Shown in pieces: positions 57,230-64,000 of a stretch of DNA of 64,000 bases. The stretch is taken from assembly GCA_965223295.1 (NCBI GenBank), contig CBDCWC010000002.1, forward strand, positions 416,001 to 480,000, read 5' to 3'. This DNA comes from Nitrospirales bacterium. Lineage in GTDB: Bacteria; Nitrospirota; Nitrospiria; Nitrospirales; UBA8639. The position numbers were made by a program, and so were the translations under genes. Positions within the stretch are counted from its first letter, which is position 1; each line of letters starts with the position of its first letter. Below the pieces are notes generated by a model. The model ran no database searches, was not told the DNA's origin, and saw only the letters and a list, made by a program, of their open reading frames with translations.

Positions 57230-59743
57230 TTACGCTAAAGAGATATTTTTGAGGCGTAGCGAATTGGTCACGACACTGACTGAGCTGAGAGCCATCGCGG
57301 CTGCAGCGAGGATGGGTTGAAGAAAACCGTATTCTCCAAACACCCATTGTAGCCCGTCCGGGACCCCACCTATGTACTGAAAAAATGGGTAGAGAATGCC
57401 GGCAGCTAGTGGAATGAGTGCAATATTATAAGCAAAAGCCCAGAACAAATTTTGGTGAATGGTCCGCATCGTAGACCGACTTAATTGAAAGGCCTTTTTG
57501 ATGCCCCGAAGGTCGCCACTCATTAAAGTAATCTGCGCTGTTTCCATAGCCACATCCGTCCCAGTTCCGATGGCAATACCCAAGTCGGCTTGAGCGAGTG
57601 CTGGAGCGTCATTAATTCCATCACCGACCATGGCCACGTGGTTCTTGCCGTGCTGTTGAAGTTTTTGAATTTCAGCGGCCTTTTCTTCAGGAAGGATCCC
57701 CGCATGAAATTGTGTAATGCCTACTTCAGAAGCAATGGCTTGAGCAACTTGATGATGGTCGCCAGTTAACATCACCACCTCGAGCCCTGCATCCGTCAGT
57801 TCTCGAACTGCTTCCTTGGCTTCGGGGCGAATGGTGTCGGCGACACCAATGACGCCTTCTATTTGTTTGTCGACACCCACCAGGACCGGAGTTTTTCCAG
57901 CTTGAGCCAGTGTTTGTACTGAATGAGCGACTCTGTCCATACTGCTGTTTCCCAATACTTTGGTCATATATGAAGTGTTCCCGATCGTCACAGTCTGTCC
58001 TTCAAGTGTGCCCTGGACGCCTTGTCCGGGAGTACTTGTAAAATTTGTGGGTTTTCTAAGCGTCACAGACTGTTGTACTGCGTGATCCACAATGGCTTCG
58101 GCCAACGGATGTTCCGATTGACGTTCTAAAGAAGCCGCTAGACGAAGAAGTTTCTGGTGATTCCATGTCGGGGCGATAATATCCGTGACCGTAGGTATGC
58201 CTCGTGTTAACGTCCCGGTTTTGTCTACCACCAGGACATTGATCCGATGAGCAGTTTCAAGAGCGGCACCATGACGAATTAAAATGCCTTGTTCGGCTCC
58301 TCGCCCTGTTCCAACCATAATCGCGGTAGGAGTTGCCAGCCCCAAAGCACAAGGGCAGGCAATAATTAGCACGGACACAAAAGTGAGAACGGCATAGGTT
58401 AAAGACGGTTCTGGCCCTAAGCTCCACCAGAGGAAAAAGGCTAAGGTTGCAATTCCCAGGACTGATGGAACAAAGATGCTGGCGATATAGTCAGCGACTC
58501 GCTGGATTGGAGGTTTGGAACCTTGGGCTTCCTGCACAAGTTGGACGAGACGGGCCAGAACTGTGTTCTTTCCAATTGCAGAAGTTTGAAAAAGAAAACT
58601 TCCGGAAGTATTCAGCGTACCGGTATAGACCTGAGAGCCAGGTTCCTTTTTTATAGGCAAGCTCTCCCCAGTGAGCATCGATTCATTGACAGAAGATTGT
58701 CCTTCTTGTACTACGCCATCCACTGGAATTTGTTCGCCAGGTCGCACAACTACGATGTCTCCCAATTGAACCTGTTCAATAGGAATGTCTTGATCTTCAT
58801 GGCCACGTCGAATTCTAGCTGTCTTAGGCCGTAAGCCCATGAGTGTGTGAATTGCTGAGGATGTTTGATTTTTTGCACGAGATTCCAGATAGCGTCCCAA
58901 GAGAATCAAGGCAATAATGATGACAGCCGTGTCGTAGTATATGGCTGCCGCAATTCCGGGGGTTTCGACGAGTGACGGGACAAAGGTCGCAACCGCGCTG
59001 TATCCATAAGCCGCTAGTGTGCCGATTGCAATGAGAGTGTTCATATTCGTCGTGCGATGTTTCGCTGATTTCCATGCGGCAGAATAAATTGGCTGTCCGG
59101 CCCACAACAAAACGAAACTGGTCAGAATGAAGAGGCTGGTATGACGAACTCCCATTGGCAAGACGGAGAAGCTTGGCAGCAAGTTCATTGTGCCCAGCAT
59201 AACAAGAAGCCCAGCAATTCCACTTACAATAGCTCGTTGAAGTAGTAGGCGTTCCTCAGTCTTTTGCGATTCAGGTATTTCTGCATTGGACGAAAACCCG
59301 CTTTCCGGTTCAAGGAGAATAGAATATCCTGCATCTCTAATGGCCTGTTGAAGCTCATGTGCTTTGGTGTCTGAAGCCCATGTGGTAATGGTGGCTGTGT
59401 GTGTTGCTAAGTTGACATTTGCGGTTTGAACGCCAGGCACAGCTCGTACGGCTTTTTCGACATGATTGACGCAGGACGCACAGGTCATTCCACCAATGTT
59501 TATCGTGTGAGTCTCAAGGGGGATTTCATACCCACCTTTCTCAATGGCATTAGTGAGTAATTGAGTTGATGCAAGGGTGGGATCAAAATCCACAGAGGCT
59601 GTTTGGGTGGCCAGGTTTACGGAGGCAAGTGATACCCCTGGGATGGCTTTCAAGGCACGTTCCACGTGACTGACACATGAAGCGCATGTCATCCCACGAA
59701 TAGGAAGTGAGGCATGGGTGACTTGAGTTGTCATAACAGTCAA
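57230..59743 (-). CDS. copA: Copper-translocating P1B-type ATPase
   Basis: Two GMTCASC HMA domains, [32 protein letters not shown]...SS. Confidence 0.95.
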
Positions 59744-59746
59744 TCG

Positions 59747-59968
59747 TTACTGTGGTGGTTGCCCCATCGTGTAGCCAGCTTCTTTGAGCGTTGATACCAT
59801 TGTTTCATAGGTCAGCAGGGTGGAGTCATATTCTACCATTGCTTCCTGTTTTTCGAGATTCACTGCAAGCTGAGAAATACCAGGAAGACTGTTGAACGCT
59901 TGTTCCACATGTCGTACGCAATTGCCGCAGGTCATGCCCTGAATAGGAAAATATTCACGTTTGGTCAT
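59747..59968 (-). CDS. copZ: Copper chaperone (HMA domain)
   Basis: GMTCGNC; 73 aa. Confidence 0.88.
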   Translation of the reverse strand: MTKREYFPIQGMTCGNCVRHVEQAFNSLPGISQLAVNLEKQEAMVEYDSTLLTYETMVSTLKEAGYTMGQPPQ

Positions 59969-59996
59969 TTTTCCGCCTCCTTGTTAAGACACCAGT

Positions 59997-60260
59997 TTAC
60001 CGCCCAACCGTATAGAGTGAGCGAAGTTCATTAATAATCTGTTCGGCCTTGCCTTTTTGAATGCCATCCACCACACAAGTTTGAAGGTGGCCGTCAAGTA
60101 GTAGCGCTTCAAGCTTTTCAATGGCTTTTCGAATCGCATGCGTTTGTTTCAAAATATCGACGCAATAGCGGTCTTCTTCCAGCATTTTTCTGACGCCCTG
60201 CAGATGTCCTTCAATATAGGCCAATCGTTTGATGGCATCAGAATGAATATCTGGGGTCAT
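59997..60260 (-). CDS. csoR: CsoR family copper-sensing repressor
   Basis: RL..IEGH..GV.KM....YC; HLQTC. Confidence 0.88.
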   Translation of the reverse strand: MTPDIHSDAIKRLAYIEGHLQGVRKMLEEDRYCVDILKQTHAIRKAIEKLEALLLDGHLQTCVVDGIQKGKAEQIINELRSLYTVGR

Positions 60261-60318: not shown

Positions 60319-60535
60319 ATATTCTCATTTCTCTCATCCTGAGTCAAGACTGGAATTTCTGGTGGGTTGAGAGTTATGCCAATTTGTTGCGTGTTAGGAC
60401 GAGAAGGTTTTTGGTTAACGTCGTTGTTGAATGTTCTTGCCTTCTATCCGAGAAACAGATGTTTCACTTCATTGTTCATCCTTAAGTCTGTGATCTCTTC
60501 CTCCGACAAACATGGAAAACGGAGGGAGTTTCTTT

Positions 60536-61093
60536 ATGTTTTTACGATTACTTGGAATAATTGTCGTATGTTCAGTTTGGGGTTGCGAATCCCTATCGAT
60601 GAATCATCGTACGTCGGAAGCCGAACAAACCGTTCCGACCAAGCCGATTTTGACGTCCTTTCCCACAGCACTCGACCCTGAATCATCGGCTCTTGCTGAT
60701 CGTATGGTGATTCCTGAGAATGCAGGTGAGCAGAAAGTCTCTGAGATGCACACGCAGGTTGAACCTTTTCCGACAATTTATTTCCCATTTGATAGTTGGG
60801 AAATTACTCCTGAAGTGAGGGAACGTCTTGATGCTACCGCAGAATGGATGACACATTTTTCAAGCTATGGACTCACCATTGAGGGCCATACCGATATTCG
60901 AGGGAGTGAAAGTTATAATATGGTGTTAGGTGTAAAACGGGCCAAGGCGGTAAAAGAATATCTAGTACATTTGGGTGTTCCCCGTACTCGCTTAGATATC
61001 GTTTCCTATGGAAATGTCTTAGTGCTTTGTGATGTAGATGATGAACACCGCTGTCATCAATTCAATCGGCGGGCCGACTTACTGTTGGAATAG
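60536..61093 (+). CDS. OmpA/Pal family peptidoglycan-associated lipoprotein
   Basis: Lipobox VWGC; IYFPFD, IEGHTD.RG...YN..LG..RA..V, SYG, NRR. Confidence 0.88.
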   Translation: MFLRLLGIIVVCSVWGCESLSMNHRTSEAEQTVPTKPILTSFPTALDPESSALADRMVIPENAGEQKVSEMHTQVEPFPTIYFPFDSWEITPEVRERLDATAEWMTHFSSYGLTIEGHTDIRGSESYNMVLGVKRAKAVKEYLVHLGVPRTRLDIVSYGNVLVLCDVDDEHRCHQFNRRADLLLE

Positions 61094-61797
61094 ATATTTT
61101 TGAAGCTCCAGTGAGCAGTCTCGTCTTTTTTTATCTAACCTATCAGAGTTTCTTGTTCTCTCCTTGTCGTTAAACATGCAAGGAGTATGTTCGCAACGAT
61201 AGCGGTCCCTCTCTTTTTCTGGTTATCCCTTACCTTTCCGGACGGGTTTCTTCCCTGCGCCTTGGTTGTACGTATGCGTCTCGAGAATGGAGGCCATTGT
61301 GAAAATTCTCAGCAATCAAAGCTTAAGAGACTGTGAGACGTTGGGTTTTCCTGCGATGCTTGTTCCTTTCTTCTCTGTTAGTGAGTCCCACCCACTTTTT
61401 TAATTAAAAAACAATACATTTTTAAAGGGTTTTCTGTTTCAGCTTGAGGCCGACTGAAAGAGTTGAAGTTATTCACCGTTTTTGTTCCCATGGGGGTAAC
61501 TATGGGAACAGCCTCGTGGAGTTGTAAGGAGAAAAGATCTATAACTCACGGAATACATCGTATCGTGGCGAAGTCCTAAGGAATGAAAACTCTTTACTCA
61601 GTAAGGATGAAATATGCCTTGAAATCATACTGAGGCCCCAGCAAGCGGTGAAAGGGGCTTACGGCAGCTATAGGTTAGATAATCGCTGAGGCTGTTAAAA
61701 AGGTCAACGGCAAACAGTTGATAGGCCACTCTGAAAATTTGAGGGACTCGCCTAGTTATGTCTTATCAAACCAGGTTGTATCTATCGGTAAGCCAGC

Positions 61798-61813
61798 CGG
61801 CAAACCGTATGCA
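61798..61813 (+). promoter_or_regulatory. Possible sigma54 (-24/-12) promoter for the LodA-like gene
   Basis: CGGCAAACCGTATGCA has GG-N10-GC spacing, ~40 nt before an AGGAGG-preceded ATG; weak match. Confidence 0.25.
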
Positions 61814-61855
61814 TGATTTATAACGGACAGTAAATCCTAAACAAGGAGGAAAGCG

Positions 61856-63535
61856 ATGAAGCTCACGAGACGGCAACTTATGGTACGTATGAGAGGTGAT
61901 GATGTTGAATTGCTTCAGAAAGAGCTGAAACTTTTAGGTTATTCGATTAGGGATAGGAAAGGATTTTTTGGTAGATCAACCAAAAAGGCGGTGCGGAAAT
62001 TCCAAGAGATTGCTGGTCTCGAAACGACAGGAGTTGTCGATCAAAGTACAGCTCGTTTGATTAATGAAGCTGTGGACAAACTGCAGCGTGGATTGCGGCG
62101 TAAATATCGAATTCACCCGGGGATTGGAATTGGGCGGCTTGGAAATGCAAAAACCGATTACTATATTGGTCCTGAGGTCTCATCACTCGATTTTCAACCT
62201 GAACCAGATGGAAATTATCGGGATGCTCGTGGAAAAATTCGAAGACAGGCTCAGAGATTTCGAATTTATGAGTACACCTATAGCGATAATTCAACTGAGC
62301 CACAGATGGTGCGGGAAATCACATGGAAGGATGCAGAAATCCACTGGGAAGTTGAACTTTCTAATCGAAAGCCTTTTGTCCAGAATAATGGCGAACGGGA
62401 ATCTGTTCCATTAAGTCCTGGAGTAAAAGCTATTAGCGGTCTTCGGCAGTCTCTTGCAGTGAGTTCATCAATATTTGGGACTTCAGTGCAATTAGGAACC
62501 CTTTCTACCGACAACGATGGCCGCTTGTTAGTATTAGGAGGTTTTGGGAAATCTGACTCGCCAGATGGAGCACCATTAGTCGGTCTGTACAGCCCTGGTT
62601 GGTATGATGATGTGTCTGATGGGCCGGTACGTGCTTCGATTCAACTTAGAGATACTGGTGAACGTCCTGCCGTCGAGGCGGCCTGGGTGATTATAGGAGT
62701 GCCAGCCTATGCCACACCAATCATTAATATTGTAACGCTCTATGATCTTATTTTTCAAAAGAGTATGGAGTTGCCACCACCTCATAGAATTGTTCCACCG
62801 ACAGAGGTTTCTTTTACAAAAGACATTTTTCCGATTTTACAGCGAACGGCCCTCATTGTATGGACCAGTGGACGTGCAAGAGGCTTTCATGACTTTCTTA
62901 ATAGTGAACGTATTAAACTTCTACGAAACAATGATTCGCGAGTCGGCTCGGCGGCACGAAATGCTCGTGAAGCCATTTTTAGCCGAGTGAATAATCCCAC
63001 TCCACCACCTTCAAGGGGTTCCATGCCTCTCTTAACAGGACTGACTGTCACTCCTTATCAATACACAATCTTAGAAAAATGGAGTAAGGGCGATTTTCTT
63101 GCAGATTGGAACGGTGCACCAAAACAGCAAAAATTTGATGCTCTCTCGCCGCAAGATCAAGTGGTTGAGTTGGAGAAAGCGGCACTGGGCTCAATTGTTG
63201 GTGGCTCATTTCATCCAGGAATTGAAGTCGGTGCAATGGTTAATGATGTGACAACCTATGAGCGTCCCTTTCGGATTAATACAGATCTTCTTCCCGGGGC
63301 TTTGACCGAATCACTTTCCATCCCCTGGCAGGCTGATTTTCGGGCATGTGGTACAGGTTGGTGGCCAGGCGGACGTCCCAATAGTGTGACTGCCGATGGC
63401 ACACAGTTTTATGATTGGATACCCCAGGACTGGGATTTCTTAGATACGGTTGAAAATTGGTGGAAACTTGGATTTATCAAGAAAAAGGTTCGTCGTGGGA
63501 ATACCGTGTATACCGAGGCAGAACGGAAGGTGTAA
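61856..63535 (+). CDS. LodA/GoxA family CTQ-dependent oxidase with an N-terminal peptidoglycan-binding domain
   Basis: aa ~8-72 PG_binding_1 pattern (GDDV..LQ..L...GY....G.FG..T..AV..FQ...GL..TG.VD..T); then YRIHPGIG..RLGN, FRIY, GWYDDVSDGPV, GGSFHPGIE, PWQADFRAC..WWP..RP. Confidence 0.88.
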   Translation: MKLTRRQLMVRMRGDDVELLQKELKLLGYSIRDRKGFFGRSTKKAVRKFQEIAGLETTGVVDQSTARLINEAVDKLQRGLRRKYRIHPGIGIGRLGNAKTDYYIGPEVSSLDFQPEPDGNYRDARGKIRRQAQRFRIYEYTYSDNSTEPQMVREITWKDAEIHWEVELSNRKPFVQNNGERESVPLSPGVKAISGLRQSLAVSSSIFGTSVQLGTLSTDNDGRLLVLGGFGKSDSPDGAPLVGLYSPGWYDDVSDGPVRASIQLRDTGERPAVEAAWVIIGVPAYATPIINIVTLYDLIFQKSMELPPPHRIVPPTEVSFTKDIFPILQRTALIVWTSGRARGFHDFLNSERIKLLRNNDSRVGSAARNAREAIFSRVNNPTPPPSRGSMPLLTGLTVTPYQYTILEKWSKGDFLADWNGAPKQQKFDALSPQDQVVELEKAALGSIVGGSFHPGIEVGAMVNDVTTYERPFRINTDLLPGALTESLSIPWQADFRACGTGWWPGGRPNSVTADGTQFYDWIPQDWDFLDTVENWWKLGFIKKKVRRGNTVYTEAERKV

Positions 63536-63720
63536 GAGATACCTGTCAAAAAAGAATTTTTTAGAAAGTTGTCGCTGAAAATAAAGGCAAGGGACAAGTT
63601 GGCAATTAAACGATGTGATGGCTCTGGTGTTATTCAGTAACAGAAAGGTGAGGTTTGTATCAGGAGCCCATCAATGAATGAGTAGTCTATGTCTGCGTAA
63701 ACGAAAGGAATCGTTTCCAA

Positions 63721-64000
63721 TTGAAATCATGCCACAATGTTGATGTATTAGTCGTCGGAGGAGGGCCTGCGGGGTTAGCTCTTAGCCTAACCTTAGTAAA
63801 AGAGGGTTTTAGCGTCACAGTACTAGAGCGTTCGTTCTATAAAGATCTGCGTGTGGGAGAAACCGTTCCACCGGACATCAAGCCACTTCTGCGTGAATTG
63901 GGTCTTTGGCAACGGCTCAGTATGAGCAGTCATTTGCCCTATGAATCGATCTGTTCATATTGGGGATCACCTACTCCACAGATTCATGATTTTCTACTCA
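63721..64000 (+). CDS. LodB/GoxB-like FAD-dependent oxidoreductase, 3'-truncated (not in the ORF track)
   Basis: Manual translation: (TTG)KSCHNVDVLVVGGGPAG...VTVLERS...RVGETVPP..PLLRELGLW...WGS; AAAGGA RBS upstream. Confidence 0.8.
   Translation, partial: MKSCHNVDVLVVGGGPAGLALSLTLVKEGFSVTVLERSFYKDLRVGETVPPDIKPLLRELGLWQRLSMSSHLPYESICSYWGSPTPQIHDFLL

Follow-up and report, generated by a model that had tools for sequence, protein, structure and literature searches.

A peptidoglycan-binding head joined to a short LodA/GoxA-family oxidase in a strain-specific insertion of a Nitrospirales bacterium

The DNA analysed here, called the window, is a stretch of 64,000 nucleotides from a Nitrospirales bacterium (GenBank assembly GCA_965223295.1, contig CBDCWC010000002.1, positions 416,001 to 480,000). 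Near its right end lies a gene for a protein of 559 amino acids, in which a peptidoglycan-binding domain of the PG_binding_1 family (the head) is fused to a short predicted oxidase of the LodA/GoxA family, whose cofactor is cysteine tryptophylquinone (CTQ). The gene of a flavoprotein maturase of the LodB/GoxB type follows on the same strand and runs past the end of the window. The following features were located.

61843..61849, + strand: Shine-Dalgarno sequence AAGGAGG, 6 nt ahead of the ATG at 61856, read from the sequence
61856..63535, + strand: fusion gene, PG_binding_1 head and short LodA/GoxA-family CTQ oxidase, 559 amino acids, predicted from Pfam, NCBIfam and PDB matches and from the fold
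61892..62059, + strand: PG_binding_1 domain, residues 13-68, a three-helix bundle, found by Pfam, the genome scan, the model and Foldseek
62090..62092, + strand: in-frame TTG (Leu79) at the junction of head and oxidase, in the context CGTGGATTG
62114..62695, + strand: LodA_N, residues 87-280, Pfam 170 bits (cut-off 26.3), in the genome scan as two stretches (profile positions 1-85 and 112-213)
63038..63373, + strand: LodA_C, residues 395-506, Pfam 88.3 bits (cut-off 25)
63335..63364, + strand: cofactor motif D494-x3-C498-x4-W503, within PWQADFRACGTGWWP
63721..64000, + strand: LodB/GoxB-type flavoprotein maturase gene, 5' part, with a GGGPAG motif and a TTG start

Residues 13-67 matched Pfam PG_binding_1 (PF01471) with 58.2 bits against a cut-off of 23 (E 9.7e-16, profile positions 1-55 of 57), and a profile scan of the source genome (G000) gave 61.3 bits for the head at G000:C2:477892-478059. 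An AlphaFold model of residues 1-90, built on nine sequences, had a predicted local distance difference test score (pLDDT) of 87.2 and contained three helices, at residues 15-26, 40-52 and 63-84. The Pfam score and the modelled helices bear out the three-helix PG_binding_1 pattern that an initial annotation, made from the letters of the window, had read in the N-terminal ~70 amino acids. The model superposed on the N-domain of SleB (6tci) with a template modelling score TMt of 0.90 and a root-mean-square deviation (rmsd) of 1.3 Å, and on CtpB (4c2g) with an rmsd of 1.1-1.2 Å; it also superposed on the peptidoglycan-binding domains of phiKZ gp144, the Zn DD-peptidase 1lbu and L,D-transpeptidases. 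All of the strongest neighbours of the head, by sequence as well as by structure, were wall enzymes or phage lysins. Helix 3 of the head runs on in the model into the first LodA strand (residues 81-87) with no flexible linker, which agrees with the earlier remark that the two domains are joined directly.

PG_binding_1, LodA_N and LodA_C all scored above their Pfam cut-offs. The residues of the cofactor motif, D494, C498 and W503, were invariant in all 45 sequences aligned (alignment A1). C498 aligns with C516 of LodA and C682 of GoxA, D494 with D512 of LodA and D678 of GoxA, and W503 with W581 of LodA; the CTQ of LodA is made by C516 and W581 (PMC4417212). The AlphaFold model of the fusion protein, built on 45 sequences, had a pLDDT of 85.9, with values above 90 over most of residues 81-559. 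Sequence searches of the PDB with the body matched only LodA and GoxA, and these two were also the only top structure matches of the model. Matches in the ESM Atlas were limited to LodA clusters (0.78) for the whole protein, and none was usable for residues 1-200. The Pfam scores, the retained cofactor residues and the fold uphold the LodA/GoxA-family domain of the initial annotation. The equivalog profiles of NCBIfam stayed under their cut-offs, with 204.3 bits against 750 for GoxA (NF038173) and 153.3 bits against 600 for LodA, the lysine 6-oxidase (NF038172). By these scores the protein is a member of the LodA/GoxA family and an ortholog of neither LodA nor GoxA.

The full maturase gene occupies L003:3721-4830, L003 being the locus that extends past the window, and codes for 369 amino acids on the same strand as the oxidase; its first 93 codons lie inside the window. 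It matched the NCBIfam profile of LodB with 285.5 bits over positions 1-361 of 361, that of GoxB with 219.3 bits and that of QhpG with 177.8 bits. Its LodB (NF038171) and GoxB (NF038174) scores remain under the equivalog cut-off of 400 bits, and the gene is classed as a putative maturase of this type that is an ortholog of neither. The initial annotation had a gene with flavin adenine dinucleotide-binding motifs (GGGPAG, RVGE) and likeness to LodB following immediately. The motifs and the LodB match stood, and the word 'immediately' did not, as the maturase start lies 185 nt past the oxidase stop. A LodB-like frame was present in 73 of 80 related loci, in 70 of the 80 on the same strand, and several of the seven loci that lack it end near the oxidase gene.

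A separate observation concerns the length of the frames in a number of these loci, mostly actinobacterial (L007-L010, L012, L015, L016, L019, L022, L027, L034, L042, L047, L054, L055). Their LodA-like frames comprise 1050-1200 amino acids and the LodB-like frame opens ~1.7-1.9 kb past the end of the oxidase domain. Such a layout hints at a long extension of the C-terminus or at an additional gene, though the long stop-free frames of high-GC DNA may explain it as well.

The start of the fusion gene at ATG 61856 is well supported, because AAGGAGG stands 6 nt ahead of it and five codons are open upstream (an open frame of 564 amino acids). Five codons leave no room for a signal peptide, and residues 1-30 are charged and contain no hydrophobic stretch, so that the absence of a signal peptide noted at the outset was confirmed. 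The residues T-R-R-Q-L-M at positions 4-9, which we take to resemble the twin-arginine consensus, are followed by charged residues with no hydrophobic region, and export by the twin-arginine translocation (Tat) system was rejected. No small partner with a Tat leader was found in the inserted DNA described below. The TTG of Leu79 lies one codon before the site where the start Met of the homologues aligns (R80 of the fusion protein); in alignment A1 these homologues open with M-x-x-Y-R-I-H-P opposite R80-P88. The point of fusion of the head is thus precisely where a short LodA-like protein once had its N-terminus. The context of this TTG, CGTGGATTG, has no spaced Shine-Dalgarno sequence, and its use as an internal start seems possible but poorly supported.

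Neither the spacer upstream of the fusion gene nor that between oxidase and maturase genes had a match in Rfam, and therefore no riboswitch hints at the substrate. The RNA fold of the oxidase-maturase spacer had a z-score of 0.05, and terminator and promoter scans gave results at chance level.

Comparison with congeners placed both genes in a strain-specific insertion, with a native gene on its left.

60512..61093, + strand: Pal/OmpA-type lipoprotein gene, the native left flank outside the insertion (Pfam OmpA, NCBIfam Pal), conserved in congeners
61094..64000, continuing to about L003 5180 (1180 bases past the window end), no strand: strain-specific insertion of ~4.5 kb

The insertion holds only the oxidase and maturase genes. 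Its flanks (L003 1-323, 480-1092 and 5640-7700) matched at the DNA level in 49 of 49 congeneric genomes, and among the DNA matches listed for the congeners, the unlisted ones being weaker, none fell in L003 1100-5180. The Pal-like and Fur-like genes are 4550 bp apart here, whereas in congeners 264 bp (G040), 305 bp (G148) or 386 bp (G192) separate them; the flank distance across G040, G148, G192 and G046 is 264-426 bp, and in G031 it is 1440 bp. A match to the LodA part was found in none of 48 other genomes sampled from the genus and in five of 401 genomes of the order, all five from another family and with at most 36-48% identity over parts of the protein. Because the conserved flanks lie close together in congeners and the LodA part has no match in the genus, the oxidase-maturase pair is an inserted islet. 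The GC content of the islet (45-46%, against 47% for the genome) is uninformative on its origin.

The right flank is native and carries Fur-like, membrane-protein and DAHP-synthase genes conserved in all 49 congeners; L003:5643-6558 encodes a regulator of the Fur/PerR family and a membrane protein rich in Cys that matched no family. On the left, window 57230-60260 (- strand) holds a copper cluster of CsoR-like, CopZ-like and CopA-type genes, also native and conserved in congeners. The insertion thus sits between metal and redox genes, all of them outside the islet. A dispersed repeat of ~180 bp (L003:5185-5370) marks the right edge of the insertion, between the maturase and Fur-like genes. It had 131 further blastn matches in the source genome and copies in congeners, and no match in Rfam.

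A second strain was recovered as contigs from four runs of one study and two samples, which cover the whole 3-kb stretch with 98.7% identity. Since these runs may include the source sample, the comparison serves as a check on the assembly and not as an independent occurrence. The fused open reading frame differed by 11 substitutions, eight synonymous and three conservative (A53S, S183T, V462A), with no indels; the 762-nt upstream spacer had ~17 substitutions and two indels. In the 234 nt of the head a single substitution separated the strains, against 2.2% divergence in the upstream spacer, the sample being small. Small as they are in number, these differences would fit purifying selection on the whole fused frame. 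The second strain also has a 13-bp insertion, ATAACGGACAGTA, at window 61819, which resembles a tandem duplication and lies a short way ahead of the fusion gene's ribosome-binding site.

The architecture was then sought elsewhere in searches that were non-exhaustive, covering the top of each match list. The characterised LodA and GoxA chains align from their residues 4-5 onto residues 83-85 of the fusion protein and so lack a wall-binding domain, as the initial annotation had stated. In a collection of 5.8 billion proteins, of which the best 120 of 749 homologues were considered, PF01471 was present in none of the 119 others and only in the window's own cluster; the nearest homologue, 53-54% identical, is head-less. 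A survey of 185,579 species genomes gave 564 relatives, and in the 80 loci retained from these no oxidase frame had a head-like N-terminus by phmmer. A HMMER search of the whole library with residues 1-180 returned 9008 matches, the best 150 of them proteins with 4-15 tandem PG_binding_1 repeats, and rules out only fusions scoring at least 119 bits. A word-indexed search with the same residues gave eight matches, namely seven head-less LodA-like proteins and the window's own protein. With residues 1-85 against longer proteins the word-indexed search gave 50 candidates and no match, which is weak evidence. A degenerate DNA pattern combining F-Q...L...G of the head with H-P-x-[IV]-G-[IV]-[AG]-R of the oxidase, in one codon choice for F-Q and too narrow for a survey, hit ten stretches in metagenome contigs; none encoded a LodA-like or PG-like protein, and they are chance matches.

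A search of the literature brought up no account of peptidoglycan-binding domains in LodA or GoxA proteins. Table 3 of the 2015 survey of the LodA family gives fusions with catalase-like PF00199, iron-redox PF14518 and vWA PF13519 domains only, and none with PG_binding_1 (PMC4417212). Homologues, loci and literature, as far as they were covered, thus yielded the combination in this protein only. A different N-terminal extension, conserved, of ~140 amino acids and with no Pfam match, was seen in six homologues of 619-672 amino acids from the same clade of short LodA-like proteins (P0028, P0031, P0034, P0036, P0040 and P0117).

Heads resembling that of the fusion protein were found by Pfam on giant proteins related to TcA, the A subunit of Tc toxins, in the congeneric genomes G046 and G218.

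L120:1171-10692, + strand: TcA-like giant protein of 3174 amino acids with a leaderless PG_binding_1 head
L121:975-11054, - strand: TcA-like giant protein of 3360 amino acids with a leaderless PG_binding_1 head
L092:1423-1719, - strand: split third TcA-like copy with the head, in another congener

The best matches to residues 1-74 across the order were the extreme N-termini of the 3360- and 3174-amino acid proteins of one congener (best E 3e-11, 46-47% identity). Pfam assigned TcA_TcB_BD and ABC_toxin_N to the giant proteins, and to one of them also VRP1 and a neuraminidase-like domain; the PG_binding_1 head of each lies at residues 13-72. As in the fusion protein, these heads are at the extreme N-terminus with no leader, have a lead-in of 11-13 residues (M-(K)-L-x-x-R-x-L) and have both canonical Asp positions (D-G-x-F-G, x-D-G) replaced; the head is followed by a Tc-type A subunit in the giant proteins and by an oxidase in the fusion protein. 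A head subtype common to the oxidase and the TcA-like proteins would be suggestive only. Recent recombination with a TcA-like gene was rejected, as the DNA ahead of the start codons showed no similarity. Nine of the 50 genomes in the genus have PF18276, among them the source genome, where it lies in a head-less frame of 2968 amino acids (C2:1060531-1069434). A literature search found no paper on a peptidoglycan-binding head of TcA.

From these data we infer, tentatively and with some leaning towards it, that the protein may be a released CTQ amine oxidase, acquired horizontally, matured in the cytoplasm and held on murein, which makes H2O2 from a small amine. A two-gene unit would have been acquired horizontally, the oxidase gaining an N-terminal peptidoglycan-binding head. 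The LodB-type flavoprotein would hydroxylate Trp503 in the cytoplasm, leading to a cysteine tryptophylquinone of Cys498 and Trp503. The mature oxidase would then convert a primary amine and O2 to an aldehyde, ammonium and H2O2, the chemistry reported for LodA and GoxA after maturation by a cytoplasmic flavoprotein (PMC4417212). Because there is no Sec or Tat leader, non-classical release is the most likely exit, which could be lysis of a subpopulation or another such route, by analogy with the 'autolytic' proteins of the LodA type and with Tc complexes. In biofilms both LodA and AlpP exert their effect by way of H2O2; AlpP is called 'autolytic', and PfaP is extracellular (PMC4699246). Tc complexes are reported to leave cells by a phage-like lysis cassette (PMC10847046). 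Once outside, the head would anchor the oxidase to wall material, either in the biofilm of the producer or on neighbouring cells, and so concentrate H2O2 there. We assume that the substrate is small and soluble, either an amine or an amino acid. The proposal of the initial annotation, that the oxidase is targeted to walls and either generates H2O2 there or deaminates amines of the peptidoglycan, seems plausible.

Several findings weigh against a released, wall-held oxidase. The two other PG_binding_1 proteins of the source genome have signal-like N-termini, which makes the fusion protein the odd one out. The islet contains no holin or secretion gene and no export route is visible; access to peptidoglycan, expected of a PG_binding_1 member, is provided neither by a leader nor by a lysis partner in the islet. 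The short LodA-like clade may itself be cytoplasmic, because the homologues of ~500 amino acids among the best 120 of 749 start directly at the oxidase domain. The head shares 47%, 37% and 26% identity with the TcA heads, and unrelated peptidoglycan-binding domains reach 38-44%, so that two of the three TcA heads are no nearer to it than these. Known from a single species, the fusion could be a young accident.

That the enzyme stays and works in the cytoplasm is unlikely. The head would then bind soluble muropeptides or wall precursors, for recruitment or regulation of recycling, or serve as a protein-protein module. Neither the fusion protein nor the aligned head-less homologues have a leader, and maturation needs a cytoplasmic flavoprotein. 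The same fold also serves as the pro-domain of matrix metalloproteinases (MMPs), and proMMP chains were among the fold matches of the head; these matches are, however, weak (E 0.8-2.4), whereas the strong neighbours of the head are all extracytoplasmic or lysis-released wall enzymes. H2O2 made in the cytoplasm would presumably be costly as well.

The head could also be neutral baggage of a recent accidental fusion, with no part to play at the wall and the whole chain working as other short LodA-like proteins do, or the start could be misread and the product begin at the TTG of Leu79; we consider this quite unlikely. The lack of a head in all 119 nearest homologues and all 80 loci makes the fusion a singleton, and the TTG lies in frame one codon ahead of the homologues' start. 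Against a misread start, ATG 61856 has a perfectly spaced Shine-Dalgarno sequence and Leu79 has none. A neutral head would hardly score so far above the Pfam cut-off and fold so confidently, features that indicate it is not decaying, and the single substitution between the strains, few sites as are compared, points the same way.

It is very doubtful that peptidoglycan itself is oxidised, in the manner of a lysyl oxidase, with the epsilon-amine of wall Lys or the N-terminal Gly of bridges turned into aldehydes that would block transpeptidation or give new cross-links, and with H2O2 as a by-product. The epsilon-amine of Lys and the alpha-amine of Gly are -CH2-NH2 groups, and the free amine of meso-diaminopimelic acid (meso-DAP) is on a methine carbon; for an enzyme that oxidises -CH2-NH2 groups, Lys-type stems and Gly bridges are therefore likelier substrates than meso-DAP. 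The characterised members oxidise exactly these amine types, LodA the epsilon-amine of free Lys and GoxA free Gly (PMC4417212). The linker-free joint fits a fixed geometry of binding and catalysis, and in the short clade, with four residues between Cys and Trp, the active site could be more accessible. Action on a polymer is not known for any member of the family, however, a point for which no dedicated literature search was made, and relatives without the head presumably act on small substrates. The host is diderm, as its Pal/OmpA-type lipoprotein gene shows, and its wall is probably of the DAP type, with the free amine on a methine carbon. There is only a slim chance that the protein is a bacterial cell-wall equivalent of lysyl oxidase, acting on Lys or Gly amines in the Lys-type walls of competitors and there taking away acceptors of transpeptidation or giving rise to non-enzymatic cross-links; if true, murein modification by a quinoprotein would be without known precedent.

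The fusion, although a single gene from a single species, bears on two matters. For the majority of LodA-like proteins neither substrate nor role is known, and their accessory domains give some of the few hints; here the head suggests action at the cell wall, or even on the wall as substrate. A leaderless wall-binding head is common to unrelated cargoes in one genus, the oxidase and Tc-type A subunits, which bears on how leaderless proteins reach the wall or stay at it after release.

Among known enzymes the fusion protein comes closest to LodA, the L-lysine epsilon-oxidase of Marinomonas mediterranea (PDB 2YMW, 3WEU, 3WEV; Foldseek E 1e-30, template modelling score TMq 0.65). Both have the two Pfam domains, the Asp, Cys and Trp residues and a downstream flavoprotein gene (LodB in the case of LodA), and neither has a signal peptide. 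They differ in sequence (~21% identity), in the size of the catalytic part (~480 amino acids against 726), in the spacing of Cys and Trp (four residues in the clade of the fusion protein against 64 in LodA) and in the PG_binding_1 head, present only in the fusion protein. GoxA, the glycine oxidase of Pseudoalteromonas luteoviolacea (PDB 6BYW among others, with GoxB as partner), belongs to the same family and matches in fold (E 4e-24), with ~16% identity and a length of 816 amino acids. The clade of the fusion protein is thus ~250 residues shorter than LodA and ~340 shorter than GoxA. Most GoxA-type proteins of group II have a twin-arginine motif (PMC4417212), whereas T-R-R-Q-L-M of the fusion protein lacks the hydrophobic region that should follow.

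The nearest relatives are short LodA-like proteins of ~470-540 amino acids from metagenomes and metagenome-assembled genomes, Planctomycetota, Acidobacteriota and Chloroflexota, with 45-54% identity over residues 80-559. They share the C-x4-W spacing and the downstream LodB-like genes, but begin at the oxidase domain (82-89% coverage of the fusion protein among the best 120 of 749), where the fusion protein has its head. Accessory modules are evidently added at the N-terminus in this clade. N-terminal accessory domains on LodA-like proteins are a known theme (PMC4417212; bioRxiv 10.64898/2026.03.27.714854). The known fusions of the family have redox or adhesion partners in proteins of ~960-1400 amino acids, and a peptidoglycan-binding partner is not listed among them.

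The PG_binding_1 modules of SleB, CtpB, phiKZ gp144 and the L,D-transpeptidases belong to the same sequence family as the head and have the same three-helix fold. Phage endolysins are leaderless, as is the fusion protein. In those wall enzymes and endolysins the module sits on hydrolases or transpeptidases; here it sits on an oxidase.

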